Origin: a virus
Virus record (IMG/VR): IMGVR_UViG_3300036945_001058
Reading direction: 5' to 3' (one strand)
DNA length: 64,000 bases
In this document: positions 2,788 to 64,000 of the stretch, one piece after another
Layout: the number at the start of each line of letters is the position of its first letter
How positions within the stretch are numbered: the stretch's first letter is position 1
Position numbers and translations under genes: made by a program
The notes under the pieces: model-generated
What the model was told of the DNA's origin: nothing
What the model saw: the letters and a program-made list of their open reading frames with translations, nothing else
Databases searched by the model: none

Positions 2788-2802
2788 TTAAAAACAAAAA
2801 AT

Positions 2803-5800: not shown

Positions 5801-8800
5801 ATATTATAAACGCCTATTTCTTTGTAACTAAAATGAATGGTTTAAAAGTTGGGTCTGTAATTGAAAATTTGTTTTTAAAAGCGAAGCCAACGAAAAGTGG
5901 TTTCGATGGAAACATAGAGTTTAACGTTGGCGATATTGTATGGCAAAAAGACGAAAGAGGATACGCTACCGTAATAAATAATTACGGCGACCCCATTAAT
6001 GGAAATTATGGAGACGTAAGGCTTGACTCAACAGGAAACACTGGGATTTACAGTCACGACTCAAAAAGGAAAACACCTGCCACAACAATAAATGCAACTG
6101 GTTATAATCTTATCAAATTAGGAGAAAAAGGAGACACAGGAAAGTTTACAACCGAAGTTCTTGCTAAAATGAAAGAAAGTGCAAATAGCCTTATTGATTA
6201 CAGAAAAAAAGCCAAAGACAAAGATGGTATTGTTTATTACCAAGAGGTTTACAAAAGGCTTCTCGATGGCGAGTTTGATTCAATGGTTAAAGGAACTTCA
6301 ACCCAAAAAAAATACATTGACCACGATGACATTAAAACCGTTACGGTAATGTATAAAGGCAAGCAAACCGTATTTAAAGGCGAGGACGTTCTTAACGGAG
6401 CAAACTTACTAGAAGATGGCGGAGACCTAAGTAAAATTGCTTTCTATATCGCTAAACGTGACGTAGTTTCTGTAGAGCTTAAAAACGGAGAAACAATAAA
6501 GCCTGCAAATGGATATTGGATTAAGAAAGGGGCAGAGCCTCTTTTTACCCCAAGCGGAACTCCAAAAAATAAAACGGACGAAAATAAAGCACATTTTCAA
6601 GCAGATGCTTTAGGGAATATTTTTGTAGATAGTAATTTTGTTAATCAATCTAAAGGTAATTTACCAAATTCAGAATTAAAGCATTATGGCTTTGGAGATT
6701 TTTATTTAGAAACTCCCGAAGGTAATATTGACTTTATTAGAACTTCTGAAGAAAAAGAAGGTTTTGTTGGTCGAACCCATAAATTAAAAGGTAGTAATGA
6801 ATTAATAAAGAAATTAATTGACGCTATGAAAGAAAAAGGCAGGTTTGACGATAATCAAACTTTTGCAAATGGAGGGTCTTTTGCTAAAGGTGGTGCTTTC
6901 AAACCTTACGGAAAAACAAAAGGAAGATACACAGTTAATTACACTGTAGATTCTGAAAAACAGTCTGAAATTTGGAACACAAGAGAAATGGCTGTGAATA
7001 ACGCTAAAAGATACGCTAAAATTGACGAATATTCAGATGTAATGGTTTTTGACGAAAACGGCAATGAAATTGATTTTTTAGTTGAAGTTTCTTTTGCTGA
7101 CGGTGGATTATTAAACAGTCGTCAAATCGAAAAACTAGATAATGGTTTTACAATTCCTCAACTTGACAAAATGTTAAGAGAAATGTTTCCTGATTCTTTT
7201 GGATTAGCTGTTTTTAAAAATGGTAAAAACCTACTTGATTACGATTATAAAGACAAAATAAAAGGCGATAAATTAAAGCTTTATTTCTACAACAAAAACT
7301 CTCGAAGAGATTTGAATTACGAGGTTCGTCAAGGGGAAGAAAATACATATTTTGATTTTAAGTTATTCGATGAAGAACAAAATACTTATACAGGTGGATT
7401 TGGATTTAAAGACGAGGGTGATGTGGACAAAAGTTATATAACCAAATTTCTTTCTTTTTTACAAGACGCTTATCATTATCCTTTCGAGGTAAAACATCTT
7501 GTAATGGCTAACGGTGGTGGTATTTCCGACTATGGGAACAGTCCAGAACTTAAATCTTTGATAGATAGACATGAAAAATTACATTTCGATGTTAAAAGCA
7601 AGATTGCAATAGCGGTTGGTCTTGACGATGCAATTTCTTTTTATGATGTAAATTTAAAAATTAATCCTTTCAGGTTTATTGAAAGAGCTGTCTATGGCGG
7701 TTTAATTTCGCTTGACGAAATAGACAAACAGCTAATCGATTCAGCAATGGAAGAAGCAGAGGATATTGATAGTGATGATGATTTGGACGAAATTGGTAGT
7801 AGCGACTTTACTTATTACTTGAAAAATGTTTTGGAAGATGCTGGCATTAAAGTTGGATTCGTAAGTGGTAGACTTCGTAGATTAAATGAAGATGGAAGCG
7901 TAAAAGAAATTAGTAATAATTTTGCTGAAGGTGGAGAAATAAGAAGATTCAATCGACACGAACAAATGGATTCTGAAACAAGAGAAGAAATTTTAGATAT
8001 TGTTTCTGACCCAAATTTAAACGGCACTTTAACTAATTACTTATATGGTTTATTTGACGGATACGATTATTCTGAAACAGAAAATTTTAAAAAAGAATTG
8101 AACAAGTTAAAATCAAAAGGTTTAGCTTTATACAGTAGAATAATTGATGTTTACGAAAAAATCGAAAAGTACAAATTTGAAAAGTATGATGAGTACGCTG
8201 ATGGTGGAATGTTTGAAGCTCCAATTGGTGTTCAAAGGGAAGTTAAGGGAAAATTAATTAGTGTTCCCACAACAGAGCAAATATCAAAATCAGAAGTTGA
8301 CAGATTTGTAGATTACGTTTATGAAGCTTATGAATCGTACGACCAAGAAGGTGTATATCAATTTACAAAACCACAAGTTAGAAAAGCAGTCAATAAATAT
8401 TTGACTCAATTAGAGTTTCAACCTACTTGGGGAGGTGGTGATAGTTTAGATAGAGAAAGAGTTTACGAATTTCTTATAAATCCGAAACTTGACGAAATTA
8501 AAAATCCAGTCTTCGCTAACGGTGGTTTTTTTGATAACAACGATGGTTTTATGGAAGCAAAAAACGGAAATAATTACCGTTATCCAGAAAGACCTGTTAA
8601 TATTGATGTTATTGACGAGCCGATTGATTTAACAAATAATGTTAGTAATCGCACAAATAAAGTTGTTATAAAACCAATTAGTGAAGATGTAGACATAACA
8701 GGGAATAACTTAAAAGCAAAGTTAGGTCATTACCAAAAAAACAGAACACCTGACAAAATGATTGCGGTAAATCCTAGAATGATTTTATATAATTTACCAA

Positions 8801-8832
8801 ACATTAATTATGAAGAACATAAAAATAACTAA
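2803..8832 (+). CDS. giant modular polyprotein 1 (18 [FYML]xxGG motifs), probable internal virion protein
   Basis: 2009 aa ORF. Motifs in order: LASGG, MAEGG, MANGG, YANGG, FADGG, FSDGG, FELGG, FENGG, YKKGG, YAYGG, LEDGG, FANGG, FAKGG, FADGG, MANGG, FAEGG, YADGG, FANGG. Confidence 0.75.
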   Translation: MNSTLLKKYETIDQSKVSEKDKKVLEQVKKLTNGFEETDEAKNKVAEKILDQITTLNPDAVKKPEVVAQKVSKVQKVVKAKKVTKAKSTATTHKNSHKNTPAPAPAPASAPASANTAKGSGNNIMSVAKEIQKTGESWKDAIERAKQVLKDRKEQVVEKKKTELQKLLALVKTKKELQGFANSDIDRDSRRTALPRGRRLSKNGNTYYENRENRTDRLAPNYPQDMPLLASGGETEKYKAGQKFYDTRYDRVCEIVPSNYDGLVTWKRYNKSGTEFENNEKHSLVENQFDYLVNMGAYQISKQQMAEGGSVSNERMYNFLTDDLNKLEIAINEGDKEEVERFFSYWSYHLKSLENKRYGEKYGRMYNFLEDDLGKLEKAINEGDKEEVERFFSYWTGSSGHIKSLKMANGGSINMNKHIWEGWTVGGFIEDLEPTFNQIMTGSSWQEPFKTKEEVKKWTMDNQPNYKKNIPEVVNYFWARVQSKENYANGGSVGSGKNGYVAFYKGKQVDVYADTKYEAQKLASQHFKAKKDYDVNVVLVELDGKPYVNKASFADGGETNEYTLNYKIEFTTSGEDSYLEGNVGGDIMDLSDVKNIDTNKYSAIAKSSSVAFEGLKGQELEDEIYNQMNEMFATNDSIEVDLESVEFKGNKFSDGGYFDKLEDVNFLFEVGEKIKIPQMENGKLELVDAEIIEQYPAEQNDGTYYPFYYVKGLWKNAGKMLYDEEKILEYGNKNKNSFELGGAFMTDLAGHTGGSFGTGNPTNLDSFSGTNYTGLVGETGAMSSGELFENGGAMIQNQQVINDASQSYVNYYLGDGAGQGSYKKGGSIPNNYEGRTADDVWGNWTEKQRSHFLLDHSELLDKDRLDNNLGYTRTVQKDKKFTELTPLTKRVLESHIGSGQYAYGGKINGNLNKKIKSLAEKKGITPDELGIVEYNKAMTQALVESLTDANFHDEAKEVISAMEKKEWSDDLYKSVYFNPDEKISSFAREVARECEWDGNDIINAYFFVTKMNGLKVGSVIENLFLKAKPTKSGFDGNIEFNVGDIVWQKDERGYATVINNYGDPINGNYGDVRLDSTGNTGIYSHDSKRKTPATTINATGYNLIKLGEKGDTGKFTTEVLAKMKESANSLIDYRKKAKDKDGIVYYQEVYKRLLDGEFDSMVKGTSTQKKYIDHDDIKTVTVMYKGKQTVFKGEDVLNGANLLEDGGDLSKIAFYIAKRDVVSVELKNGETIKPANGYWIKKGAEPLFTPSGTPKNKTDENKAHFQADALGNIFVDSNFVNQSKGNLPNSELKHYGFGDFYLETPEGNIDFIRTSEEKEGFVGRTHKLKGSNELIKKLIDAMKEKGRFDDNQTFANGGSFAKGGAFKPYGKTKGRYTVNYTVDSEKQSEIWNTREMAVNNAKRYAKIDEYSDVMVFDENGNEIDFLVEVSFADGGLLNSRQIEKLDNGFTIPQLDKMLREMFPDSFGLAVFKNGKNLLDYDYKDKIKGDKLKLYFYNKNSRRDLNYEVRQGEENTYFDFKLFDEEQNTYTGGFGFKDEGDVDKSYITKFLSFLQDAYHYPFEVKHLVMANGGGISDYGNSPELKSLIDRHEKLHFDVKSKIAIAVGLDDAISFYDVNLKINPFRFIERAVYGGLISLDEIDKQLIDSAMEEAEDIDSDDDLDEIGSSDFTYYLKNVLEDAGIKVGFVSGRLRRLNEDGSVKEISNNFAEGGEIRRFNRHEQMDSETREEILDIVSDPNLNGTLTNYLYGLFDGYDYSETENFKKELNKLKSKGLALYSRIIDVYEKIEKYKFEKYDEYADGGMFEAPIGVQREVKGKLISVPTTEQISKSEVDRFVDYVYEAYESYDQEGVYQFTKPQVRKAVNKYLTQLEFQPTWGGGDSLDRERVYEFLINPKLDEIKNPVFANGGFFDNNDGFMEAKNGNNYRYPERPVNIDVIDEPIDLTNNVSNRTNKVVIKPISEDVDITGNNLKAKLGHYQKNRTPDKMIAVNPRMILYNLPNINYEEHKNN
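3745..3987 (+). repeat. internal duplication (2 x 96 nt, period 147) encoding RMYNFLxDDLxKLExAINEGDKEEVERFFSYW
   Basis: 3745-3840 vs 3892-3987 are near-identical. Confidence 0.9.
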
Positions 8833-8850
8833 ATTATAATAAATAAAAAT

Positions 8851-11800
8851 ATGAAGCTATTCGATAAAACAATAGACGAACAATTATTTAAACAATATGC
8901 ACTTGGTAGTGACCTCTCTAAACAAGAGGTTGTTGTTAAGATTTATAATCCTTTTGGAGCGGGAAGCTGGTATATATTAAATTCCGACCCGCAAGACCCT
9001 GATTACCTTTGGGCAATTGTTGATTTAGGCTATGGAGCAGAAGTTGGTTCTGTTAGTCGAAACGACCTAGAAAGTTATCGTGGTGAATTCGGGTTAGGAT
9101 TTGAACGAGATTTAGGTTTTGAACCTGTTAATGGAGAAGAACTCTTTAAAGGACTTCGTCAAGGTAAGTTTTACGCCAATGGTGGTGGGATTGATGATTA
9201 TTCTGATTTGTATGGTCAAGAAGTTATGGCTTTAAAAAACGCAAAAAATCAAGCGAAAAGAACGGGTTACGACTATCTTGTTTATTTGAAATAAGGAGAA
9301 ATTTCTTTTGCTCGTAAAAATGAATTTGAAAGATTCTTTGATAAAGAGGAGTGTAAAATACTATATACGATTGATGAAAAAGGAAATGCTGATAAAATCA
9401 AGTCTTATGATGAAGGCGGAAATGTTGAAGAATACAAACCTTATGTATTTTATTTCTATTACGATGGGAACGAAATGACCTTTAACACTTTAGAGAAAGC
9501 TCTTGAAGAAGCTAAACAATTAGGAGCAATGAAAGTTAGAGATGATTTAGGAGGAGAGTACTTTGTAAATTATGCTGACGGCGGAAACTTGTCAAGAGAC
9601 CAGAAATTCGTAAACAAAAGCGAAGATTATGAGGTAGAGTATTCAAAAGGCACGAATCGAAAAGGTTATGAAAAACATTCTTTTGCAGAAGGAGGAAACG
9701 TAAGACAATCTTTAGAAGATGTTTTGAAACAAGATGTTACTTTTTTAAAATTCGATAGTAATAGAGCTTACGATAAATTAGTTAGATTAAATATTCCGCT
9801 TATTAATGTTCACGATTATGATTTTAATCATTATACTATAATTGAAACTAAAAACCTTGAAAAAGTTTTAGAGTATGTAAAAAAAGGGGTAAGAATAGTT
9901 AAGAAGAAATTTGCATCGGCTGATTTGGGTTTTGACTACAGAGGGAGTATGAGTTTTGAAGATGGTGGAGATATTGATAATGAAATCTACGAAAAAAGAC
10001 TTCAATATTTAAAAATGATGAAGAACAATGAGCGTAGTGATTTGGGTAAATACCAAATAGATAAAGAAATTAAAAATATAAATATGATTTTAGAACATAG
10101 AAAAAACATAGAAAGTTCTTATTCTAATGGCGGAAATCTATTTAAAAACCTTAGTATTGAAAAACAAGAAGCAAGACAAAATCTTAAAGAAAACATTATA
10201 AAAGCATTATTTGTAGATAAAAAAAATCCAATCACAGAAGTTGCTTTAACCTATTCTAATTCTAAGTATTCAGTTCCTAATATTAATAAACAAGACATTA
10301 GAAATACGGTATGGGAGATAAACCAAACTAAAAAATATAAAAATATAATTGTTTACACTAATTCTTATGGCGTTTTGAGTTTAAAAGTAGAAAACAGCTT
10401 TGAAGAAGGTGGCTCTATCAAAAAAACAAGGCGAACAAATAACCAAATAAGAAAAGATAATTATAACAAGGAAGTTGATTTGTATAATTGGTACGTTGTT
10501 AATGTTGCAGAATTAAAAGCGGAATCAGGATTTGAACACAAAGAAGATGCACTTGATTTGCTTTCGGACTATGATGGTGATAAAAACTTTAAGGTAGTTT
10601 CTAAAAAATCTTTAAAAACTTTAGGAATTGAAATACCTAACGAAAGATGGAAATATGCTAATGGTGGAAGTTTTGACGATGATTTTGACGGAATTGCTTA
10701 TGCTAAAACCAAAGGAAAAGAAAGTATCGACTGGGATAAGGAATTAAAAGAATATGCTGGCGAAAAAGAATATCAAAGATTGACTCCACGAGAAAAAGAA
10801 GAAATAATTTCTGACCTACAAAGAGATTGGGATAGGTCTAATTCCTATGCTAATGGAGGAAACATAATAAAACCAAAAGTAGGAGATACGATATTTAGAG
10901 CTTACTACGTTAAGGATTACGATGGCGAACATTATAATGCAATTATTATAGCTGAAAACGCTGAAAAAGCCGAAGAAAAAGCAAGGTCAATCTACAAGGA
11001 TGATTTTTCTTTTATAAGTGATGGCATAAAAATAAAGAACGAAGAACAATTGTTTGAAGAAACAAGAGAAGACGAGCCAGTTTATAATTGTGAAAAAGGA
11101 GAAGAAATGAACGCAAAAGATTTAACTAATAAAGAAGTTTATGAGCAAATTGTGTCGAAAGTAGGTAATAGTATTTGGGAACAAAATGCTTTAAATATAC
11201 TAAGGAATGAATCGGTAAAGAACCCTGATGGCGTATTTAAACCTACAGGAGATTTAGACAAGTTGCAAAAGTATCTATCCAATAGTAATTACTATGAAAA
11301 AGGCGGAGAAATTGCCAAAGCAGAAATTCTCGGTTTCAGTAAAAACATAATGGGAACTACTGATATTGAAATGAGAATAACAGGAATGAGAAAACCTCAA
11401 AACTTCATTGTTTATCCAATAGGCAAAGACGATGCTGGAAGTGTTATTACAATCCAATCAGAAACAAGAATAGGTCAAATTAACTTGGTAAAAGGGGTTG
11501 GTGTAATGAGCCAAAGTCATTCAAGCGGGGCTTATTTTGTTCACTTACAAATGGATAAACTAACTCCTTTCACATTAAGCGAAAGCGACTTGGAAGACCT
11601 AAAAACAAGCGTTTTTAAAACTTCTGGTTCTAACGTTGGGTCTTCTATTGTAAAATCTGATAATTCAGGGGCTTCAAGGATTTTAGCCAAAGGTGGCGAC
11701 TTAGGCAAATACGAAGGCGGTAAGAATTTTGAAATTAGAGACTACAAAATGCTAAATATAGATGATGTTTTAGAGAGAGAAAAACCTATAAAATTATACA

Positions 11801-27755: not shown

Positions 27756-28086
27756 AGTAGTAATCGATACTTCGGTAGCAAGACTTATCGCTAATGACCT
27801 TGTGAGAGGAGATTTTTGTAAAGAGGAAATAAAGTTGGTTGTAAATAATCTAAACTTAACCAAGAAAGAGGTAGTGCTTAAAGATAGTATCATAGATACT
27901 TTAGAAAAGCAGAAAGATTACCTCGATTTGATTATTTCAAAAAAAGATAAAATGTTTGCCAACCAAGAAGAAATATCTAAGACCTTTAAAAAAGAACTTT
28001 CAAAACAAAAGCGCACAACCTTTCTTTATAAGTTTTTTTCTTTGCTAGGGGTCGCTTCTACAGCAATACTCATAGTGAAACCATAA
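27643..28086 (+). CDS. probable second spanin component
   Basis: Signal-like N-terminus with Cys (LMMLVC), coiled coil, C-terminal hydrophobic segment; 113-nt overlap with previous gene. Confidence 0.5.
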   Translation: MKKFKLISLSLMMLVCGRSISQTVMQKKAYPLQTQENKVVIDTSVARLIANDLVRGDFCKEEIKLVVNNLNLTKKEVVLKDSIIDTLEKQKDYLDLIISKKDKMFANQEEISKTFKKELSKQKRTTFLYKFFSLLGVASTAILIVKP

Positions 28087-28113
28087 TCTAAAAATATTAA
28101 AACAAAAACCAAA

Positions 28114-28353
28114 ATGTCAAACGTAAGCACGTATTTATCGAACGCACGTCAAAGTGCAATGGAATCTTTCTCAAATGCTGATGGATTCATCGACCAAGAT
28201 TTGAGTTTCACTAATTTGATTATTTCAAAAAAAGATGAAATATTTGTCAACCAAGAAGAAATATATAAGACTTTAAGAAAAAGAACTATCAAAAAAAAGA
28301 GAACAACATTTCTCTATAAAGTTTTTTCTTTTTTAGGAGTTGCTTCTACGTAA
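28114..28353 (+). CDS. chimeric ORF: capsid-candidate leader fused to a diverged copy of the spanin C-terminus
   Basis: 28092-28212 matches 28741-28860; 28214-28350 matches 27926-28061. Confidence 0.7.
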   Translation: MSNVSTYLSNARQSAMESFSNADGFIDQDLSFTNLIISKKDEIFVNQEEIYKTLRKRTIKKKRTTFLYKVFSFLGVAST

Positions 28354-28383
28354 CACTAATAAGAACTAAAAACATTAAATTTT

Positions 28384-28412
28384 AAACACACCAACAAGGT
28401 GTGTTTTTTTTT
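28384..28412 (+). terminator. rho-independent terminator
   Basis: AAACACACC-aacaa-GGTGTGTTT followed by a T run. Confidence 0.75.
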
Positions 28413-28506
28413 GTTATTAAATCTTAATAATTTAAAATAAATTATCGCAAGTTTATTATTTATTGATAAACAAGACGTTAATTAATTGCGATTTGAATAT
28501 ATAATA

Positions 28507-28514
28507 TAAATTTG
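28507..28514 (+). promoter_or_regulatory. -7 promoter element TAAATTTG upstream of the capsid operon
   Basis: TAnnTTTG match with TTGC about 20 nt upstream. Confidence 0.55.
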
Positions 28515-28580
28515 ACATTAATATTATTTCTGTAAATAATAATCTTTAAAAATAAGTATAAATAAAAAAATCATTCTGAA

Positions 28581-28706
28581 ATGAAAAACGAAATTGTTCC
28601 TTTATTGAAAAGTGTTGCCGTTGTTGTTGTAGGTGTTTTAATTGCTAATTATGTTCAAACAACATTATTGGTAAAAAAAATTGAAGCTCCTAAAACTGCC
28701 GTGTAA
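28581..28706 (+). CDS. small membrane protein (41 aa, not in track)
   Basis: MKNEIVPLLKSVAVVVVGVLIANYVQ... Confidence 0.6.
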   Translation: MKNEIVPLLKSVAVVVVGVLIANYVQTTLLVKKIEAPKTAV

Positions 28707-28761
28707 TTAGGTGTAAAATCCGAGTAAAAAAATTAGTAAAAAATATTAAAACAAAAACAAA

Positions 28762-29457
28762 ATGTCAAACGTAAGAAGATATTTATCGAACGCACGTCAA
28801 AGTGCAATGGAATCTTTCTCAAATGCTGACGGATTCATCGACCAAGATTTGAGTTTCACTGGTGATGATTTCTTTAGAGCAGATGGGGGTATGGGTCAAC
28901 AAGATATTCAAACATCTCAACCCTACATAATCAACGTGACTTCTACATCAGGGTCAGCAGTTGCAAACTTTAGTGTACTTGGTTCTTTCCAATACATTAA
29001 CAATACAGGATTTGTTAATGGTTCATTAACCATTGGTTCTATTACAATTAGTTCAGGTATTCCTGACATCACTTATCAAGAGATGTTATATCAATTTATG
29101 AATAATCCTTATTCAGTTGGTTTAACTTACATTCAATCGGCTACTACAAATCAAGTTTTACAAACTTTGTCTGTAAACACGAGAGATGCGAATGGTAATT
29201 TAGCACAAAAAACTTTAGTACCTACTATTGACCCTTACCAACAACAAACCAATATTGTTGCGATGAAGTATGCTTACCGTATTGATGGTTTTACAAAAAT
29301 CATTATTGCTCAAGTATTAGCTAACGCTACTGTATCGTTATACTTCTACCCTGCTGATAACATCAACCTTTCGAGAGCATTGGGCGGTCAACCAGTAAGC
29401 AGACAATTCGGAACACCTCCTGTAACTAATGGACAAACCATCAAGTTAAGAGCGTAA
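28762..29457 (+). CDS. candidate major capsid protein (single jelly-roll-sized beta protein with acidic leader)
   Basis: Alternating beta-strand patterns; promoter upstream and strong terminator downstream; clear paralog at 48687; leader carries FSNADG and FFRADGG. Confidence 0.55.
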   Translation: MSNVRRYLSNARQSAMESFSNADGFIDQDLSFTGDDFFRADGGMGQQDIQTSQPYIINVTSTSGSAVANFSVLGSFQYINNTGFVNGSLTIGSITISSGIPDITYQEMLYQFMNNPYSVGLTYIQSATTNQVLQTLSVNTRDANGNLAQKTLVPTIDPYQQQTNIVAMKYAYRIDGFTKIIIAQVLANATVSLYFYPADNINLSRALGGQPVSRQFGTPPVTNGQTIKLRA

Positions 29458-31741: not shown

Positions 31742-31781
31742 AAAAAAAAAGAAAGTATCAATAATTAAAAACAAAAAAAAA

Positions 31782-32114
31782 ATGGAATTACTAAAAGACA
31801 AAAAAGTATTAATAGCATTAGGACTATTAGTTTTAGGTGGCGGATTTCTTTATTTAAGAAGTAAAAAAGCGAAAGAAGATGTTTTATCAACAGGTGCTGT
31901 AGCAGGTACTCCTCCAAAAAACAATTACGCTATAAAAGAAGAAGGAAAAGATGGGGTATGGTTGGTTTCAGACGGTACAAAATATGCATTTTCAAGCATA
32001 GATTCTTATAAAAACTATGGCTCTCCAACTGTTACACATGTTACAAAATCAGAATTAGATTTGATACCAACTATAGGATGGGTAAATTTAAAAGGAGAGC
32101 TTGTGAAAAATTAA
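31782..32114 (+). CDS. anchored surface protein A
   Basis: Likely start is ATG 31782; first 31 aa identical to the next gene. Confidence 0.75.
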   Translation: MELLKDKKVLIALGLLVLGGGFLYLRSKKAKEDVLSTGAVAGTPPKNNYAIKEEGKDGVWLVSDGTKYAFSSIDSYKNYGSPTVTHVTKSELDLIPTIGWVNLKGELVKN

Positions 32115-32132
32115 TAATTAAAAACAAAAAAA

Positions 32133-32558
32133 ATGGAATTACTAAAAGACAAAAAAGTATTAATAGCATTAGGACTATTGGTTTTAGGTGGCGGATTTCT
32201 TTATTTAAGAAGTAAAAAAGCGAAAGAGAATCTTTTTAAGAATTCAACGACGAGTAATAATACAGGCGGTAATTCAACAGCAACTAATGAAACAGGTGAG
32301 GTAGATAAAAACCTTAAGAGTTATACTTGGTCTTATAATAGCGGTGATACTAATTCTATTGCATGTTCTCAAGGCGCAGGACAATCACTTTATAGTAAAA
32401 ATGACACTATGGTAGCTGGAGATACGGTATATACTGATTCAAAAGGTCTTTCTGTTTTTAATGGAAAAAATGCTTATTGGAAAAAATATACTGGAATTGT
32501 AAACCAAACTATGCAAATAAATGATAAAGGAGTGGTTGGTAATGTTTCAAACTGTTAA
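32133..32558 (+). CDS. anchored surface protein B with Cys-closed beta domain
   Basis: Same anchor; AC...GDTVYTD...FNG...Y...I...G.V...C domain. Confidence 0.75.
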   Translation: MELLKDKKVLIALGLLVLGGGFLYLRSKKAKENLFKNSTTSNNTGGNSTATNETGEVDKNLKSYTWSYNSGDTNSIACSQGAGQSLYSKNDTMVAGDTVYTDSKGLSVFNGKNAYWKKYTGIVNQTMQINDKGVVGNVSNC

Positions 32559-34153: not shown

Positions 34154-34714
34154 ATGATGATTACAAAAAAAGCAAGAGCACCTTTAGAATATTTGGAACA
34201 AATAGAAGACTTTGTACCTGTGACTATTCAAACAAGAGGTAATGAATATTATAAACCTGTAGAACGACTTGAGGACGAGCTATTAATACTTGAAACTAAA
34301 TATCCTAAACCAGTAAAACAAGGTGTTTCTATAATTTTACCTGACCACGTGCCTTTAGAAGATTTGGAAAAAATAGAAGACTTTGTGCCTGTGACCATTC
34401 AAACAAGCAGTAATGAATATCCTAAACCTGTAGAACAAGGTGTTTCTATAATTTTACCTGACCCATTGCCTTCGGAAGATTTGGGAAAAATAAAAGACAC
34501 AGCACCTGTGAATATTGAAACAAGCAGTAATGAATATCCTAAACCTGTAGAGCAAAATTCTATAGATATTCCTGTTGAATATTCGAAAAGAGATTTTCAA
34601 ACAAATAGCAATACAATCGTTTCTGTTATCAACAAAAATAAAAATTTACTAATGATAGCAGGTGCTTTTTTAGTAGGATATATTATATTCAGCAATAGTA
34701 AATCGTCTAATTAA
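34154..34714 (+). CDS. repetitive Pro/Glu-rich protein with C-terminal TM
   Basis: About three imperfect units of (E)DFVPVTIQTxxNEYPKPVE; TM LLMIAGAFLVGYIIF. Confidence 0.65.
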   Translation: MMITKKARAPLEYLEQIEDFVPVTIQTRGNEYYKPVERLEDELLILETKYPKPVKQGVSIILPDHVPLEDLEKIEDFVPVTIQTSSNEYPKPVEQGVSIILPDPLPSEDLGKIKDTAPVNIETSSNEYPKPVEQNSIDIPVEYSKRDFQTNSNTIVSVINKNKNLLMIAGAFLVGYIIFSNSKSSN

Positions 34715-41595: not shown

Positions 41596-43620
41596 ATGGG
41601 AACAGTAACAAGGTCAAGTCAGAACAATATTACGAGTCCGAACGGAAATAGTTTGGCAATATTTGTTGATGGCGAAAGTGAGGTAATGAAAGTGAAAGAT
41701 GTTCGTGGTAATATACAACCATTATCTGATTTTATTGAAAATAACGGCGGTAGTCCTTTTGAATACAACGAAGTTGTTGGTACTGGGATTCAGCCAACTA
41801 TGGGAGGTAATTATGCTTCTGCTGTTTTTTCAACAGTAGGTGGTGGCGTTTCAAATACAGCCTCTGGTGAAAATTCAACAGTTGGAGGAGGCTGTGGCAA
41901 TGTAGCTTCTATTACCAATTCGACAATTGGGGGAGGAAATAATAACTCTTCCTGTGGAGTAAATTCAACAGTTGGTGGGGGACGTAACAACACGTCTTAT
42001 GGGCAAAACTCAAAAGTAGGAGGAGGGTTTGGTAATTATTCTTCTGGTTTTAATTCAGTAATTGGAGGAGGATCTGGCAATATAGCTTCTAGTTCCGATT
42101 CGACAGTTGCAGGCGGTTCTAAAAACACTGCTTCTTGTAATTTTTCAACAATAGGTGGAGGACGTTACAACACTGCTTCTGGTTGTTTTTCAATGATTTC
42201 AGGAGGGTATAACAACATTGCTTCTGGTTGTTATTCAATTATTTCAGGAGGGTATGGCAACGATTCTACTGGTGGCTTTTCAATAGTTAATGGAGGGAAA
42301 AATAATAATTCCTCTAGTCTTTATTCAGTAGTTGGAGGAGGATTTGGCAACACTGCTTCTTATAATGGTGCAACAGTTAGTGGAGGATGTTTAAACACTG
42401 CTTCTGGTCAAGTTTCAACAGTTTTAGGAGGGTATTGCAACCTTGCTTCTAGTCCTTATTCAGTAGTTGGAGGAGGGAATCTCAACTCTTCTACAGGGGG
42501 TATGTCAACAATAGGTGGAGGATGTGGTAACACTGCTTCTTATAATGGTGCAACAGTTGGAGGAGGGACTGGCAACGCTTCTACAGCGAATAACTCAACA
42601 GTTGGAGGAGGTTTTTGCAACGTTTCTAGTGGTATATTTTCAACAGTTGCAGGAGGGTATGCCAACGCTTCTGTCTGTAACTATTCAACAATTGGAGGAG
42701 GAAAAAGAAATACATCTTCTAATTGTGGTTCAACAATAGGTGGTGGGATTTACAACTTAGCTTATAGTCCTAATTCAATTATAGGTGGGGGTGCAAATAA
42801 CAGCATTACATATAGTAATGGTGCTCCGTTAGGTGTTGGTTCTTTTTTTATTCCTAATTCAAATGTAATCGCAGGAGGGAATCAAAACTGTATTATTGGT
42901 ACTATGGATAGCAACCTACAAATAAGTAAACAAGCTAATGGAAATACAATTGGTGGAGGTGTTTGCAACGTTGCTGGTTATAATCTTACTGGTATTGGTA
43001 TTTATGACTCTGGGTTTGCAACAATTGGCGGTGGATATAAAAACACAGCTATAGGATTTTATTCAACAATAGGTGGAGGGGCTAAAAATTGTTCTCGTGG
43101 TGCAAATTCGGTAATTAACGGTGGTTATTGTAATAAAGCTGATGGTGTAAATTCGGTAATTGGAGGAGGATTTAAAAATGAAGAAAGTGGTTCACTTTCG
43201 GTAATTGGTGGTGGTTATTGTAATTCTATATATCAAGCTTGTTTTTCAACAATTAGTGGTGGGCGGAGTAACTCTATTGCTGGTTATGAATCGACAATTA
43301 GTGGTGGGCGGAGTAATTGTGTTAGTGGTGCAGTATCTACAATTTCTGGCGGAGGTCAAAATATTGCTAGTGGTTACTTAAGTTTTATTGGAGGAGGTCG
43401 CTATAATGTTACTTCTTATTCTAATACTGCGATTTTAGGAGGGGTTTTTAATAACGCAACTTGTTCAGAATCTATGATTGTAGGTAGTAATATAACAAGC
43501 AATAGAGATTGTACTACTTTTGTGAATAATTTATCTATTATGAATATTCCAACATCTAGTGCAGGTTTGCCTAGTAAATCAGTATGGAGTAATTTAGGAG
43601 TATTAACAATCGTACCTTAA
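41596..43620 (+). CDS. Gly-rich beta-roll repeat protein, probable spike/receptor-binding protein
   Basis: Dozens of ~14-aa STxGGGxxNxAS repeats (YadA-head/Hep_Hag-like). Confidence 0.7.
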   Translation: MGTVTRSSQNNITSPNGNSLAIFVDGESEVMKVKDVRGNIQPLSDFIENNGGSPFEYNEVVGTGIQPTMGGNYASAVFSTVGGGVSNTASGENSTVGGGCGNVASITNSTIGGGNNNSSCGVNSTVGGGRNNTSYGQNSKVGGGFGNYSSGFNSVIGGGSGNIASSSDSTVAGGSKNTASCNFSTIGGGRYNTASGCFSMISGGYNNIASGCYSIISGGYGNDSTGGFSIVNGGKNNNSSSLYSVVGGGFGNTASYNGATVSGGCLNTASGQVSTVLGGYCNLASSPYSVVGGGNLNSSTGGMSTIGGGCGNTASYNGATVGGGTGNASTANNSTVGGGFCNVSSGIFSTVAGGYANASVCNYSTIGGGKRNTSSNCGSTIGGGIYNLAYSPNSIIGGGANNSITYSNGAPLGVGSFFIPNSNVIAGGNQNCIIGTMDSNLQISKQANGNTIGGGVCNVAGYNLTGIGIYDSGFATIGGGYKNTAIGFYSTIGGGAKNCSRGANSVINGGYCNKADGVNSVIGGGFKNEESGSLSVIGGGYCNSIYQACFSTISGGRSNSIAGYESTISGGRSNCVSGAVSTISGGGQNIASGYLSFIGGGRYNVTSYSNTAILGGVFNNATCSESMIVGSNITSNRDCTTFVNNLSIMNIPTSSAGLPSKSVWSNLGVLTIVP

Positions 43621-49613: not shown

Positions 49614-50801
49614 ATGAGTGCATCAATTAGTTCTACAATAGCCCTTAATGTTCAAAACAATACTAATTTACCGCAAAATGTAAATTTATTAGGTGGAACT
49701 CAAGATGCTTCAAGTGTTCCTCCGAGTACGCTTTACGAATATGATTTATCAGGGGAAAATTATACTGGAATAGCAAATGCAAATATTATTATCTCTAATA
49801 CAGCAAATCCAACGCCTGTAACATATACTGTTCAAGTTAATGGTGGTAATATTCAATCCTTAGCCATTGCCTTTAACACGCTTAATCAAGGTCTTTTTCA
49901 ATCAAACGGCAATACGCTTTATGTTTCTTCGGATTATTATATTTATTCAAATATAAGTATTTCTGGAAGTTCTGTTTTCGGAACAACTGATTCACAACCA
50001 CAAGCAATAACAATTGATTCAGTAGGTAATATTTACACAGCAAATAGCGGAAGCGATAATATAAGCAAAATAACACCTCTTGGAGTATCGACTATTTTAG
50101 GAACATCTGGTTCACAACCAAGAGGAATAACAATTGATTCAGTAGGTAATATTTATACAGTAAATTCATTTTCGGATGATGTAGTTAAAACAACACCTTT
50201 AGGAGTATCTACTATTCACGGAATAACTGGAAGTAATCCTTTTGGGATTACAATAGATAGTTCAGGAAATATTTACACTTCAAATTACAATTCTAGTGAT
50301 GTAAGTAAAATTACACCTCTTGGAGTATGTACTATTTTAGGAACAACTGGAAGTAATCCTGCTGGGATTACAATTGATTCGTTAGGTAATATTTATACTG
50401 CAAACGCTGGAAGCAATAACGTAAGTAAAATTACACCTCTTGGGGTATCCACTATTTTAGGAACAACTGGAAGTAATCCTTTTGGGATTACAATAGATAG
50501 TTCAGGAAATATTTACACTTCAAATTACAATTCTAGTGATGTAAGTAAAATTACACCTCTTGGAGTATCTACTATTTTAGGAACAACTGGAAGTAATCCT
50601 GCTGGGATTACAATTGATTCGTTAGGTAATATTTATACTGCAAACGCTGGAAGCAATAACGTAAGTAAAATTACACCTCTTGGGGTATCCACTATTTTAG
50701 GAACAACTGGAAGTAATCCTTTTGGGATTACAATTGATTCATCAGGTAATATTTATACAGCAAATAGTGGAAGTGATGATGTTACGGTAATCGTTCAATA
50801 A
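49614..50801 (+). CDS. vertex/spike candidate: beta N-terminal domain plus 7 x 40-aa NHL-type propeller repeats
   Basis: P.GITIDS.GNIYT.N.....VSKITP repeats. Confidence 0.75.
   Translation: MSASISSTIALNVQNNTNLPQNVNLLGGTQDASSVPPSTLYEYDLSGENYTGIANANIIISNTANPTPVTYTVQVNGGNIQSLAIAFNTLNQGLFQSNGNTLYVSSDYYIYSNISISGSSVFGTTDSQPQAITIDSVGNIYTANSGSDNISKITPLGVSTILGTSGSQPRGITIDSVGNIYTVNSFSDDVVKTTPLGVSTIHGITGSNPFGITIDSSGNIYTSNYNSSDVSKITPLGVCTILGTTGSNPAGITIDSLGNIYTANAGSNNVSKITPLGVSTILGTTGSNPFGITIDSSGNIYTSNYNSSDVSKITPLGVSTILGTTGSNPAGITIDSLGNIYTANAGSNNVSKITPLGVSTILGTTGSNPFGITIDSSGNIYTANSGSDDVTVIVQ
49981..50800 (+). repeat. 120-nt tandem units, including a near-perfect 240-nt duplication
   Basis: Units start at 49981, 50101, 50221, 50341, 50461, 50581 and 50701; 50221-50460 matches 50461-50700. 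Confidence 0.9.
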
Positions 50802-56297: not shown

Positions 56298-57827
56298 TTA
56301 TAAAAGTTTAAGTTGTACGTTTGGTTTCTTTTTTGGTTTTATTTCTTTTTTTGCTTTGGTTTGTTTTTTAGGTTCAAATACTTTGCCTTTTTCGTCAAAA
56401 GGCTTATCTTTCCAATGCTCAAATCTAGTGTTTCCAATATCGATATACTCGGCATTTAACTCACATCCTGAAAAGTCTGTAAAACCAGCTTTGTAGCCTC
56501 CAATCACTTCGCTTTGAACTCCTGCAAACGGATAAACAATTTTCTGCGGGTTTGGAGTTTTGAATAAGGTCAATATTCTAAAAGAAAGGCTAATTGGTTT
56601 TAACGTAGGGTGGTTGTTTTTTGATGGGGCTGTCAGCCCTCCCATAGCTTCTACTGAAGGAGCATCTTCGCTTCTTCCTGTAGCCGATGGATTTCTAAAA
56701 TTTAAAGAACCGCCAATCTTTTGCTCAAAACCTTCACAACCTGCGTTTCTTTCGCTTTTAGACACTTTTGGCGCATAAACATATAAATCCATTTTGCCGT
56801 TTTCATAGTCGCATTTATGAAGTATTTTGGAACAACCACCTATATCTGAATATTCTGGAGTATTGTCGTTTGGCATACCGAATGATTCAGATGTTTTAGT
56901 TCTTGTTCTTAGAGCATCACTTCCTTTTGTAATACCACTCTGCTCATCAAGTCTTTCAGCAGTACCGCTATCGCAAAACGTTTGACTTGGGTAACGACCT
57001 TGTTTGTTTGGCGGAGTAGCAATGTTTAAAGCAAAATCTCCGTATTTCTGATGGTCTTTACCGTTATAATTATCAGTTGGATTTTTGCTTGATTTGGCAT
57101 CTAGCATATCTTTATCGGATTCACTCATAGGAACTCTACCACCGTCAATATTCCAAGCAAAGCAAGCGCAAGTTTCATCTCCGTTTTCGTAAGCTAAAGT
57201 ATCGTGGAGGCACGAACCCGTCTTGTAAGGTTTTTGAAAAACCATAATAGTTTCGCAAGTTTGCTTGAGGGGTGCGATAGAATAGCGCAAACCATCGTAT
57301 TTTTTAGCTAAGTCGTGTGTAGGATAAGTTAGGTCGTATTCAGGCTTAATGTAATTTTCTTTTCTACCTTGATTTTTTCCTCCAAATTCAGGGTTTTGTT
57401 TTCCCATACCTTTTTTTGTGCCAACTACGGTTCTTTCAATTTTAAGATTTTTATCAATATTGTCTGAAAGATTACTCGATTTTGGAAAATTTGAAATAAA
57501 GTACCAGTACATCGATTGGCGTACTTGAAACCCAGCTTTGATAGCATAATACTGAAACATAGGTAGTTGTCGGTCTATACCAAACATAACACAGTAGCCA
57601 CCGTGTTTTAATGTTCTAATACTTTCTTCAAACCATTTTTCCCAATAGTCACCAGTTGGCATTTCCCATTTATTCATAAAGTCGGTAGCCTTTTTGTAAT
57701 CAAGCTTGCCATCAGGACGAATATAAATCTCGCTACCTAAAGCGTAAGGTGGGTCTGAATAATTAATATCAAAAGCAAAATCTTTTTGCTCTTGTAAAAA
57801 CATTAGGCTATCTTTTTCTATTATCAT
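56298..57827 (-). CDS. amino-DNA methyltransferase (N4/N6, beta-type order)
   Basis: N-terminal SDPPY, HPTLKP, and a divergent SAM motif YPFAGVQS...G.ELN.EY near the C-terminus. Confidence 0.8.
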   Translation of the reverse strand: MIIEKDSLMFLQEQKDFAFDINYSDPPYALGSEIYIRPDGKLDYKKATDFMNKWEMPTGDYWEKWFEESIRTLKHGGYCVMFGIDRQLPMFQYYAIKAGFQVRQSMYWYFISNFPKSSNLSDNIDKNLKIERTVVGTKKGMGKQNPEFGGKNQGRKENYIKPEYDLTYPTHDLAKKYDGLRYSIAPLKQTCETIMVFQKPYKTGSCLHDTLAYENGDETCACFAWNIDGGRVPMSESDKDMLDAKSSKNPTDNYNGKDHQKYGDFALNIATPPNKQGRYPSQTFCDSGTAERLDEQSGITKGSDALRTRTKTSESFGMPNDNTPEYSDIGGCSKILHKCDYENGKMDLYVYAPKVSKSERNAGCEGFEQKIGGSLNFRNPSATGRSEDAPSVEAMGGLTAPSKNNHPTLKPISLSFRILTLFKTPNPQKIVYPFAGVQSEVIGGYKAGFTDFSGCELNAEYIDIGNTRFEHWKDKPFDEKGKVFEPKKQTKAKKEIKPKKKPNVQLKLL

Positions 57828-60588: not shown

Positions 60589-61537
60589 CTCCTTCTTTAA
60601 GATTTTTACCTAATTGGTCAAATCTTTCTGAAAATTGTTTCTTGGTTATTAGTTTTCTCTCTAAAAGACTTTCCAATTTATCAATTGCTTTATTGTATTC
60701 AGCAGTCCTATTTGCTTTTGAGTCTTCAATAATGGTTTGGTTTGTCTTCTCAACTTTAGGTATAGGTTTTAACTCTACTTTAGAAGGTAAATTAGTGTTT
60801 TTTACGTTCTTTTTTAAAAGTAATTTACGCTCTTCTTCTTTTTGCTTATTAAATAATTCTATACGCTCTCTTTCATCGACTGGCATTTGGTCTTTGGTTG
60901 TATATGAATTTCTAATTAGACGCTTTTTATTAACTGTTTCAAAAGCTAAAGAATTGTCAAAGGTTATTAGAATATAGTAATTACAACCAATTGTAGAATT
61001 ATCTTCTTCTCCTTCAATTAAAACAATAAAAAAAGAAATAATAGGAAAATATCCGCTTTTATTACTTACTTTACGCATGTCTTCACGTATTGAAATTAAG
61101 TTAGGTAATAATTCTTTTTTGATTACACCTGTCTTAGCAAAAACATTACCGTTAAACTCCAAGTCTAAATTCACCTTAACATCACTGTTCAAGATAGAAA
61201 CCTTATCATCAATGTCAAACCATTCAAAACTATCTAATAATTCTCCACTTATGGAAAATGGATTAAAACAAATTTCTCTTGATTTTGTATGGGTAGCTGT
61301 AGAGGTTTGTTTTACAAAAGAACTAATTGTTCCATCCAAAATACCAGTTACTTGAATATCAATATCAGTAACTTTTAATTTAGAAAGATTTTTAGTTCCT
61401 TTATACTTCTGAAAAATATTTTTAGAAGTCCACTTTTGCGCATCAGACCACTTCCAACCTAACTTGCGTTTTTTCGATACTTTATAAGCTCTTCTCGCAA
61501 GTTTGTTAAATAATTTAAGAGAATTATTCTTTTTCAT
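60578..61537 (-). CDS. hypothetical basic protein ending LKEGGEI
   Basis: 319 aa; Lys-rich termini; overlaps the PolB-like gene. Confidence 0.65.
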   Translation of the reverse strand: MKKNNSLKLFNKLARRAYKVSKKRKLGWKWSDAQKWTSKNIFQKYKGTKNLSKLKVTDIDIQVTGILDGTISSFVKQTSTATHTKSREICFNPFSISGELLDSFEWFDIDDKVSILNSDVKVNLDLEFNGNVFAKTGVIKKELLPNLISIREDMRKVSNKSGYFPIISFFIVLIEGEEDNSTIGCNYYILITFDNSLAFETVNKKRLIRNSYTTKDQMPVDERERIELFNKQKEEERKLLLKKNVKNTNLPSKVELKPIPKVEKTNQTIIEDSKANRTAEYNKAIDKLESLLERKLITKKQFSERFDQLGKNLKEGGEI

Positions 61538-61840
61538 TTAGACTGTTGGTTCAGGTTCAGGGACTTGGTAGTTCTTGTAATTATTAATTGTAGAAAGTGA
61601 AAGTTTGAACGCTTTTGCAGTAGCTACTAAAGAGTGATTTTTGCAATAATCAGCAATACTTTTCTTAAGGTCATTATCAATAGGGTAAACTTTTTTACCA
61701 GTGTCTACCATACCTGTATTTCGACAATGGTAATTGATTGTACCTCTTGAACAAGTGAGAATTTTTTGAATTTCTCTATAAGATTTGCCTTCGTTTCGTA
61801 ATTGAACTATGTTGTTTTTTAAATTTCTTTTTAATGACAT
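61538..61840 (-). CDS. double-HTH DNA-binding protein
   Basis: GKSYREIQKILTCSRGTINYH; LVATAKAFKLSLSTI. Confidence 0.7.
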   Translation of the reverse strand: MSLKRNLKNNIVQLRNEGKSYREIQKILTCSRGTINYHCRNTGMVDTGKKVYPIDNDLKKSIADYCKNHSLVATAKAFKLSLSTINNYKNYQVPEPEPTV

Positions 61841-61861
61841 AATGTTGTTGTTTATGAATAG

Positions 61862-61880
61862 GTTTATTGGTACAAATATA
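61862..61880 (-). promoter_or_regulatory. promoter TATATTTGTACCAATAAAC
   Basis: Identical to 54696-54714. Confidence 0.65.
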
Positions 61881-61950
61881 TGGTTTTTTTATAAAAAAAA
61901 GTGCAAATGCACTTAGTTTAAAAAAATTAAAAGCGTGTTAAATATCAAAA

Positions 61951-62181
61951 TTACTTATAGGGCTTTAAACTTATAGGGTCAAATGTAATGTCCATTAGAG
62001 ATTTAAAATAGTTAGAGGAAGAATTGTTTTCTGTATTATTTTGTTTTTCATCAGAAGTACCTAAGTCGTTTTTACTTAAAGAAATGTCTGGTTTTTGAAA
62101 AAAAGACCATACAAAAAAACTAATCGCCCCTAACGCAATTGCGCTACCTCCGTATAATAATAATATTTTTTTAGTATTCAT
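61951..62181 (-). CDS. N-terminally anchored membrane protein
   Basis: ILLLYGGSAIALGAISFFVWSFF. Confidence 0.65.
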   Translation of the reverse strand: MNTKKILLLYGGSAIALGAISFFVWSFFQKPDISLSKNDLGTSDEKQNNTENNSSSNYFKSLMDITFDPISLKPYK

Positions 62182-62366
62182 AATGGTTATGTTTAAACCT
62201 GTTAAAACAGTTTTTTTTTTAAGTTTGTTTTTTTTATATAAAAAAAAATTTATATTCTGCTAAATAAGGTTTTTTTATTGATTAATGCAAATTAATTTTT
62301 GTTATTTTTTTTTTTTTTATTTTTTATTTTAGAAACAGGATGACATAGTAGATTTATGGAAAAGTA

Positions 62367-62693
62367 CTAGCCATTACACAGAAAATACATCTCTGAATTA
62401 ATTCCTTTTTGTGTTTTAATAAGATTTTTGTTTTCTAACTCCTTAATATATACTTCAATATCAGTCCATTTAAAAAGGTTGTTTAGCTCAACAGAGGTAA
62501 CTCCGTTACTTCCATTACTTAAATTGTGTTTTTCTTTTACAGCTTGAAAAATAGTTCTTTTGATAAAGAAATCCTTAACGCTTTCAAAGTCTAATGAATT
62601 CAATGTTTTGAATTGAAATTCTTTTTCAGAGCCAAAATCTGAAGATGGTATAATTTCTCCATCCGTAGATATTATTGCACTTATTTTAGCCAT
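62367..62693 (-). CDS. hypothetical protein (possible winged-helix C-terminus)
   Basis: 108 aa ORF. Confidence 0.55.
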   Translation of the reverse strand: MAKISAIISTDGEIIPSSDFGSEKEFQFKTLNSLDFESVKDFFIKRTIFQAVKEKHNLSNGSNGVTSVELNNLFKWTDIEVYIKELENKNLIKTQKGINSEMYFLCNG

Positions 62694-62696
62694 AGT

Positions 62697-63171
62697 TTAA
62701 AAATTATATTTCATCTTCGTTGGAGTCTCCAAAAGTGGAATCCTGACATACTCTCGTGCATTTTTAAATGGAGATTTATCAAAGTTAACTCCGTGAGTAA
62801 CCGCTTCAATAATTTGTTTTTTTTTCTTTTTCTTTCAATCTTCCGCTATTTTAAACTTATACAATCTTGAACATTTACGTTTAAGGTTGCTGTTAAATTA
62901 ATGCTTTATTGAGATTCCGACAAATTATTTATCGGTGATTTAACCTCTCCACATCCGAGTTAAACGGTATAGCTTACCGCTTTTTTCTTTAAATTTAAAC
63001 TTGCATTCAAATCTCTATCCAATTCGTTTTTACATTCTTGGCATTTGAATATTCGTTCACTTAATTTCAATTCTTTTTTCTTAAACCCTTTTCCTCATTA
63101 AATCATCTTTTAAAATCTATAATGCTAAAAAATTCAGATGCTTTTACTATTTCGTCAATTACTGTTTTCAT
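62697..63171 (-). pseudogene. small phage gene broken by the TnpB remnant
   Basis: 5' part MKTVIDEIVKASEFFSIIDFKR*FNEEK; 3' part ...KQIIEAVTHG...AREY beyond the insert. Confidence 0.45.
62843..63088 (-). mobile_element. tnpB: 3' remnant of a tnpB gene plus element right end (IS607/IS605-like)
   Basis: GFKKKELKLSERIFKCQECKNELDRDLNASLNL...* (63088-62960), then noncoding sequence ending TGTATAAGTTTAAAATAGCGG. Confidence 0.75.
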
Positions 63172-63259
63172 ATTTTTATATTTAGTTTGTTAGCAAAAAA
63201 AAAACGAGAATAAATAGGTGACCAGCTTTAACGGTATATTTTTTTTGTTTTACCACTAT

Positions 63260-63320
63260 TGATAACTCGTTGATATACATTGTTTTGAACAGTTTAGTAG
63301 CGACAATTAAGGAGTTATGC
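63260..63320 (-). other. attC-like recombination site downstream of the methyltransferase cassette
   Basis: Minus strand GCATAAC (overlaps the stop codon) ... GTTATCA, with an ATAACTC/GAGTTAT inverted repeat. Confidence 0.55.
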
Positions 63321-63860
63321 GTAATGGCTACGATACGTTTCCAAATCAACAGACCCTTCTGCCTCGTTACCCCAAACGTCCCACCCCTGTTTTACGTCCC
63401 TTGCAAATAATTCTATTCGGTTTCCAGACGGATATATAGTATCAATTAAGTCCGCAAAATACTTTGGTTTTTTTGAGTGTTCGGTGCGTTCAATTGAAAC
63501 AACACTATCAAACAATTTCTTTATTTCAGGGGTGCAACTTCCTTTTGTGCATATCAATAAAAGTTCGTGCCTTACAGAATTATAATGTCCCATATTGTGT
63601 TTTATTTTATCCCAAACAAAGCTGCTTTTATAACTGAAACCCCACGCTTTTATCACAGCAAATGTTTCTTCAAGTAAAGGGCTTGTAGTCCAAATAAATA
63701 AAACAGCGTTATCTTCTATAAGGCACTTCACAGGTAAGTTGCAAAGTTCTTTTATTGTCATTGTTTTATAGTGTTTTACCGCACCTCCAAGTTTAGGTGT
63801 ATTTTGCTTATCGTTGTATTTCCAAGCAGGGTCTGCGTAAATTATTTTATATTTCTTCAT
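63315..63860 (-). CDS. MT-A70 family N6-adenine methyltransferase
   Basis: IIYADPAW, LFIWTT, WGF.YK...WDK, ELLLI..KG, HSKKP, IELFAR, GW..WGNE. Confidence 0.9.
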   Translation of the reverse strand: MKKYKIIYADPAWKYNDKQNTPKLGGAVKHYKTMTIKELCNLPVKCLIEDNAVLFIWTTSPLLEETFAVIKAWGFSYKSSFVWDKIKHNMGHYNSVRHELLLICTKGSCTPEIKKLFDSVVSIERTEHSKKPKYFADLIDTIYPSGNRIELFARDVKQGWDVWGNEAEGSVDLETYRSHYA

Positions 63861-63895
63861 ACTAATTGAGTTTATCGTTAATTAACCGCCACTAC

Positions 63896-63995
63896 GCATA
63901 ACAGCGGTTTTGTGCTATTTGCCCCATCAACATTTGTGGTAAACTTGAAACTTTGTGCAAGGGGCAAACAGACACAAAGCCGCGAAACGTTATAG
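63896..63995 (-). other. attC-like long imperfect palindrome upstream of the cassette
   Basis: CTATAAC...GTTATGC ends; nested inverted repeats GCGGTTTTGTG/CACAAAGCCGC and TTTGCCCC/GGGGCAAA. Confidence 0.7.
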
Positions 63996-64000
63996 CACAT

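Follow-up and report, generated by a model that had tools for sequence, protein, structure and literature searches.

A viral methyltransferase gene as a probable mobile cassette of an integron-like recombination system of Flavobacterium-type bacteria and viruses

The window analyzed here is a 64,000-nucleotide stretch of DNA from a virus (IMG/VR record IMGVR_UViG_3300036945_001058). Near its right end, on the minus strand, lies a gene for an MT-A70 family N6-adenine DNA methyltransferase (63315-63860; 181 aa, DPAW motif). An earlier reading of this DNA, made without database searches and here called the sequence-only reading, had described the gene as a methyltransferase packaged in an integron-like cassette. 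The methyltransferase call is borne out by a match of the ORF to Pfam PF05063 (E 1.6e-24), and the protein is ~40% identical to many phage methylases. The gene is bracketed by an inverted repeat. Its left arm, GTTATGCGTAATGGC (63314-63328, plus strand, R'-like), consists of a junction G at 63314 and the first 14 bases of the proposed cassette, TTATGCGTAATGGC (63315-63328, plus strand). The right arm, GCCACTACGCATAAC (63888-63902, plus strand, R''-like), complements the left arm except at C63892 versus A63324. Both the 14/15 inverted match of the sequence-only reading and its placement of the stop codon inside the GCATAAC box were reproduced: the TAA stop is the plus-strand TTA at 63315-63317, the first three bases past the junction G. 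Note that a 15/16 inverted repeat arises by chance within the same ORF, so that by statistics alone the 14/15 repeat is unremarkable. The window boxes GCATAAC, GTTATGC and GTTATAG each differ by one base from the R''/R' consensus of attC sites, RYYYAAC / GTTRRRY. A second methyltransferase gene (56301-57827, minus strand; 509 aa, N6_N4_Mtase family) belongs to the same leftward gene block and has no hairpin site.

To the right of the gene, an attC-like hairpin site of 94 nt (63899-63992, plus strand) was defined by covariance model R1, folding and covariation. It begins with TAAC (63899-63902) and a single A. From there an 11-bp helix leads to a bulged A (63972); after 2 bp and an A63917 x C63969 mismatch comes a helix of 8 bp, capped by a 35-nt loop. 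Stem pairing joins 63904-63925 to 63961-63983, and the site closes with the spacer GAAAC and GTTA (63989-63992). The spacers are therefore 1 nt (A) on the 5' side versus 5 nt on the 3' side. As DNA the hairpin folds at -19.5 kcal/mol on the plus strand (z -2.2) and -21.6 kcal/mol on the minus strand (z -2.9), in agreement with the large nested palindrome reported earlier at 63896-63995. Model R1 scores it at 80.7 to 87.7 bits (E 4e-12 to 9e-15). Its presumed counterpart on the other side of the gene, the smaller palindrome at 63260-63320, did not hold up as a site: it has 7 outer base pairs only (z -0.8 and +0.2), and R1 gave no match there even with filters off and E up to 10. Over the last 13.2 kb of the window R1 found one site only, with none to the left of 63314, and the window ends 8 nt past that site. 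No Rfam family matches window positions 61500-64000. In GenBank phages a 35-40-aa ORF is annotated across the hairpin; we rejected it on the grounds of one-base indels and non-conserved starts among copies. On the minus strand at 62963-63094, 250 nt from the cassette, a 44-aa open frame ending ..ERIFKCQECKNELDRDLNASLNLKKKAV resembles the terminal part of an IS200/IS605 TnpB, with its zinc ribbon and RuvC-III. Stop codons on all sides of the frame make it probable that this TnpB-like remnant is what is left of an insertion that decayed close to the downstream end of the cassette.

The window site belongs to a family with a common plan (TAAC-A, a long stem, a 5-nt spacer and GTTA) in which stem sequences differ between sites. 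In contig L004 and in the Flavobacterium phage lillamy9-1, single small genes are divided by hairpins of this plan. A structure scan of lillamy9-1 detected 12 sites, all on one strand and all inside the leftward early operon at 2255-8956; shuffled sequences gave 0-1. In an alignment of 23 sites, double changes were found in 15 of 16 stem pairs, and 93% of cells were paired compared with 31-40% when partners were slid, the figure of 93% being inflated because the sites were chosen by a pairing scan; none of 500 shuffles reached the observed values. Model R1 was likewise trained on sites selected by a pairing scan. TAACA and (A/C)CGTTA are invariant in the 23 sites, and an inner-stem A x C mismatch, a T.G wobble (18/23) and an optional bulged base are conserved among them. 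Across the family, TAAC and GTTA are the only invariant parts of the R boxes. Applied to six Baltic Flavobacterium phages, R1 identified 75 sites (8 to 14 per phage), all co-oriented and all in the leftward early operon. The distance from TAAC to GTTA is ~65-130 nt in phage sites; many bacterial sites are longer, at ~125-160 nt. The paper describing the Baltic phages does not mention these repeats.

To derive cassette maps, the six phage arrays were cut at the G of each GTTA and the pieces were clustered. The resulting cassette orders are ABCDEFGHIJKL in lillamy, ABCDEFMGHNJK in morran, ABCDEFGOPHIJK in sniff, ABCDEGOPHIJK in snork, GQAPHIJKL in hattifnatt and ARSTUVW in filifjonk. Wherever a cassette has alternative neighbors in these maps, identity ends exactly at ..C G|TTA, and every gene gain, loss or move among the six phages breaks exactly at CG|TTA. 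Two expectations of the cassette reading are borne out: further attC-like units are abundant (these 75 from the six Baltic phages, plus hundreds from Flavobacterium genomes), and the boundaries of gene presence and absence between relatives fall exactly at G|TTA sites.

The ends of each cassette are also related to one another. The cassette start, which begins with GTTA, is complementary to the bases preceding the cassette's own hairpin, with ~10 exact pairs, a fixed A/C mismatch at position 11 (A against G in the reverse-complement comparison) and then 3-4 more pairs. This flank rule is obeyed by 141/150 pairs, 67 of 69 from phages and 74 of 81 from bacteria. Partner flanks have a median exact run of 10 and match at 14 of 16 bases, whereas non-partner flanks match over 4-5 bases. 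A cassette start that completes the site at the cassette's end is the hallmark of integron cassettes. The window pair conforms to the flank rule in full, including the mismatch of A63324 versus C63892, and it is this agreement with the 141/150 other cassettes that gives the 14/15 repeat its meaning. When the ends of the window cassette are joined into a virtual circle, the junction folds at -30.1 and -33.8 kcal/mol, versus -19.5 and -21.6 kcal/mol in the array context.

Gene direction differs between the two groups. Genes are antisense to their sites in 69/69 phage cassettes and in the window, and have the same sense in 76/81 bacterial cassettes. For the window gene this places the hairpin at its 5' end. 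In 20 of 69 phage cassettes the TTA of G|TTA doubles as the stop codon, and the same is true of the window; a start codon lies inside the hairpin in 20/69 as well, which is not so in the window.

On this model the window contains one complete cassette of 675 nt (63315-63989, plus strand), which opens with the TTA that follows the left junction and closes with the right-junction G. The right junction G and the bases after it, TTATAGCACAT (63989-64000, plus strand), would be the start of the next cassette, cut by the window end. An exact 38-mer of the hairpin matched five IMG/VR contigs, all from other viruses; by blastn the hairpin alone was matched in 37 Flavobacterium phage records, and it is conserved at 85-91% across phages. 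For whole-window comparison we used three IMG/VR sequences, one a whole contig (G002, the contig of locus L002) and two (L003 and L005) loci of ~12-14 kb. All three share 63314-63993 at 92-95% nucleotide identity, with methyltransferase proteins that are 97-98% identical, and the rest of the 64 kb has no match to them beyond the cassette (blastn, tblastx at 1e-8, blastp at 1e-3). Two further loci, L156 and L158, carry the same gene with homology to the window reaching only to ~63912 or 63949, and their hairpin cores differ. Counting the window, six genomes have unrelated left contexts with homology starting exactly at G|TTATGC. At the right end, copies with the window hairpin are identical through ..ACG and diverge after TTAT. 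Both ends of the unit therefore break at G|TTA, as in an R'-box crossover of an integron cassette. No target duplication was found at the six insertion contexts. The window cassette was not found in 133 bacterial loci, and an exact 30-mer from the window end had no match in metagenome contigs.

More distant copies of the gene lie in other settings. MT-A70 homologues at 80% identity or less are mostly outside cassettes, with one site among 66 loci. One homologous methylase (L161, 80% identity) has different flanks which, judged by eye, still pair approximately apart from an indel. A 74% identical homologue at L162:2440-3080 has a different repeated motif, ACTCCCTGTTAGGGG, on both sides in place of the hairpin sites.

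We conclude, with a probability of about 0.85, that 63315-63989 is one mobile cassette and that it belongs to a site-specific recombination system, integron-like in character, of Flavobacterium-type bacteria and their viruses. The integron-like cassette proposed by the sequence-only reading is in this respect upheld by the site family, the flank rule and the boundaries at G|TTA. Both cleavage and joining of cassettes would take place at G|TTA, where each hairpin has its 3' foot. In an excised circle, the first 14 cassette bases would be placed behind the cassette's own hairpin and could pair there with 63888-63901, which would rebuild a complete site with a 15-bp outer helix and one fixed A/C mismatch. 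The substrate would probably be a folded single strand. Counting against this reading are the single site in the last 13.2 kb of the window, the lack of a recombinase homologue in the window, and the occurrence of three cores with one gene and of one core with different genes.

The enzyme may be sought in the bacteria. A 17-mer of the site matched many Flavobacterium contigs, often several times per contig, with ~70 chance matches expected elsewhere in the collection, and R1 detected 182 sites in 200 kb of those Flavobacterium loci. In Flavobacterium sp. SM15, 20 co-oriented sites lie directly downstream of a gene for a 356-aa tyrosine recombinase. Its best solved relative is VchIntIA (2A3V; E 1.7e-40). 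It has no counterpart of VchIntIA residues ~205-246, the IntI-specific insertion, and its alignment with XerC-like and XerA proteins runs without a break; its two TIGR02249 matches sum to ~216 bits, under the cut-off of 265. Co-occurrence was assessed in 121 Flavobacterium species genomes. Sites were present in 88 and the recombinase in 74; 67 genomes had both, 21 had sites only, 7 had the recombinase only and 26 had neither (odds ratio 11.9, Fisher p 5e-8, uncorrected for phylogeny). The recombinase gene stands at the array head in several contiguous assemblies and at a contig end in many drafts. Between the SM15 recombinase gene and the first hairpin site are ~530 nt (L149:14464-14996), in which no attI-like site was seen by eye.

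The sequence-only reading had seen no integrase in the window, and a tblastn search of the window for a tyrosine recombinase agreed, returning only noise. PF00589 was absent from the 25 of 48 Pfam families listed for the window and had no match in phages lillamy9-1 and filifjonk9-1 or in three IMG/VR contigs. As no such recombinase was found in the window or in the Baltic phages searched, the acting enzyme is presumably the host's. A tyrosine recombinase of the Xer/IntI lineage, as encoded directly upstream of Flavobacterium arrays, is the likely candidate. For the viruses, the likely benefit would be a trade in methyltransferases and other small early genes, with evasion of host restriction as one example of its use.

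The system can be compared with the integrons, in particular with sedentary chromosomal integrons and with the 'inverted integrase' layout. Common to both are arrays of single-gene cassettes, palindromes conserved in structure and not in sequence, a crossover at G|TT, a cassette start that completes the site at the cassette end, and a tyrosine recombinase at the head of the array whose closest solved structure is VchIntIA. The length of the window site also falls within the range of attC sites (about 57-141 nt), and the R'' complementarity at the cassette's own end is 14/15 in the window. The differences are equally specific. By the IntegronFinder definition an integron requires a tyrosine recombinase with the IntI-specific additional domain; the window has no homologue, and the Flavobacterium recombinase lacks the insertion and scores below the TIGR02249 cut-off. 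Classical attC sites have two unpaired spacers, one in each arm, with extrahelical bases on one arm, whereas the sites described here have an asymmetric junction of 1 nt versus 5 nt, one optional bulge, a fixed A x C, a 15-bp outer helix with a fixed A/C mismatch, and a core of NTAAC/GTTAN. Integron ORFs are co-directional with an attC located 3' of the ORF; viral genes here are all inverted, with the hairpin at the gene's 5' end, and the window gene is no exception. Since neither an IntI enzyme nor attC spacers are present, standard integron finders probably miss the system. In Bacteroidetes, IntegronFinder 2.0 reported only In0 elements and one complete integron (Salinibacter).

The closest published viral elements are CALINs, clusters of two or more neighboring attC sites without an integrase. 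A survey of 10,705 phage genomes, with downloads up to May 2022, described 17 of them with 2-3 sites each (PMC9892861, Front Microbiol 2023). Like the arrays described here, these include integrase-less sites in virulent Flavobacteriia phages and methyltransferase genes; the CALIN of Polaribacter phage P12002L carries two methyltransferases. One of its sites, P12002L_attC1, resembles the window site (TAAC-A, a stem, a spacer of ~6 nt and GTTA). It was the sole one of six sites not recombined by IntI1 (PMC9892861), and so the one published site of this architecture, unused by IntI1, counts against our reading. The main text of that paper and one supplementary file do not name Flavobacterium and, in contrast to the present analysis, give no flank rule, host arrays or Xer-like enzyme. 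No description of a system such as the one proposed here was found in the literature searched.

The exchange of hairpin cores is the observation that fits a simple integron scheme least well. The same methylase gene with its 15-nt flanks is joined to three hairpin cores (window 63899-63992, L156:2300-2430 and L158:2370-2500), and the window core is also found with other genes and flanks. Given one gene and its flanks with three cores, the core would be exchangeable at the TAAC border. A single crossover at G|TTA fails to explain this core swapping; additional exchange at the TAAC border, or a duplex reaction like that of Xer, would. In the latter case the same recombinase would act on duplex DNA at a Xer/dif-like site, binding the TAAC and GTTA arms with the hairpin core as a long central region, and recombination at the left or right border, with subsequent replication, would part the core from the sequence on either side. 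Breakpoints on both sides of the core fit this alternative, as does the recombinase, which can be aligned over its length with XerC-like and XerA proteins and has no equivalent of the IntI insertion by which extrahelical bases are read. The stems speak for the other side: their strong covariation, together with the conserved bulge, mismatch and wobble, indicates selection on the folded form, and to our knowledge a central region of ~90 nt has no precedent among Xer sites. We consider duplex recombination unlikely, while giving it real weight.

Hairpins between small early genes can have other functions. In T7, RNase III sites are stems that process or stabilize transcripts. In T4-type phages, promoter-early-stem-loop cassettes of hyperplastic regions carry promoters and are thought to recombine by sequence homology. 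The T4-type cassettes resemble ours in that small early genes are divided by conserved stem-loops and shuffled between phages; here, however, breakpoints fall at a 5-nt core between unrelated hairpins, and a dedicated, host-linked recombinase is present. The hairpins could accordingly be regarded as RNA-level processing or stabilizing signals, with genes swapped by homologous recombination between conserved hairpins. Such a role would suit sites that lie between genes of one operon, a window hairpin as conserved across phages as this one (85-91%), and the G-U pairing that results, on the mRNA-sense strand, at flank position 11 and at the inner mismatch. It would not account for neighbors with unrelated hairpins that still break at the same 5-nt core, for arrays that adjoin a tyrosine recombinase, or for an asymmetry of the site junction that is kept in spite of opposite gene directions in bacteria (76/81 same sense) and phages (69/69 antisense); Rfam gave no match either. 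RNA signals with homologous exchange are thus an improbable explanation.

A small transposon-like unit with 15-bp terminal inverted repeats, mobilized by a transposase acting in trans or by a hairpin-using HUH enzyme of the IS200/IS605 type, is more improbable still. It would explain why an inverted repeat brackets the gene, and the TnpB C-terminal remnant lies only 250 nt away. Beyond GTTA, however, the repeat sequence is unique to each cassette, which leaves no common end for a transposase to recognize; the six insertion contexts lack a target duplication, and the units abut in arrays. That the inverted repeat is a coincidence beside an unrelated palindrome, as the 15/16 chance repeat inside the same ORF might suggest, can be practically dismissed, given that its position, GTTA start and A/C at position 11 follow the rule of 141/150 other cassettes.

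In the prevailing view, integrons are platforms of bacteria for which IntI and canonical attC sites are diagnostic, and phages are credited at most with carrying a few attC sites now and then. In the lytic Flavobacterium phages considered here, whole early operons are made of cassettes, and one methyltransferase cassette occurs in at least six viral contexts, three of which have nothing else in common with the window. Returning to site-specific recombination of cassettes, we lean toward a broader conclusion, held with less confidence than the identity of the window cassette: that this is a distinct gene-capture system of Bacteroidota, integron-like, with a Xer/IntI-like recombinase that lacks the IntI domain and hairpins with an asymmetric junction and a 15-bp outer helix. 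It would be common to hosts and very different viruses, with viral cassettes inverted, and would move methyltransferases and early genes between unrelated viruses. If the cassettes serve against restriction, the system would provide a concrete mechanism by which such genes turn over rapidly in aquatic viruses. As a natural variant, it also allows one to ask which features of its site an integron recombinase really needs.

Several minor observations concern related phages and the remainder of the window. Polaribacter phage Leef_1 (L155) has one significant site match (38.9 bits, E 1.8e-05) and two non-significant ones (15-16 bits, E about 0.4) at 3980-5084. All three are antisense to small genes and lie just upstream of a Xer-like integrase gene (6137-7000), the product of which shares 35% identity with the Flavobacterium array recombinase. 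Polaribacter phages Freya_1 to Freya_9 (MT732463-MT732471; L154) are near-identical isolates of 44.0-48.6 kb. Their integrase gene starts at 29, 30, 490, 962, 3224 or 3819, in circular records whose start points may differ, and this spread does no more than hint that the DNA beside the integrase varies; R1 gave only weak antisense matches near the Freya integrases. In the window itself, ten large ORFs searched against PHROGs showed no tailed-phage hallmarks. Self-comparison of the window revealed internal direct or tandem repeats with 75-97% identity at 49972-50777, 42033-42701, 34181-34555, 27926-28860, 31757-32227 and 3745-3988.
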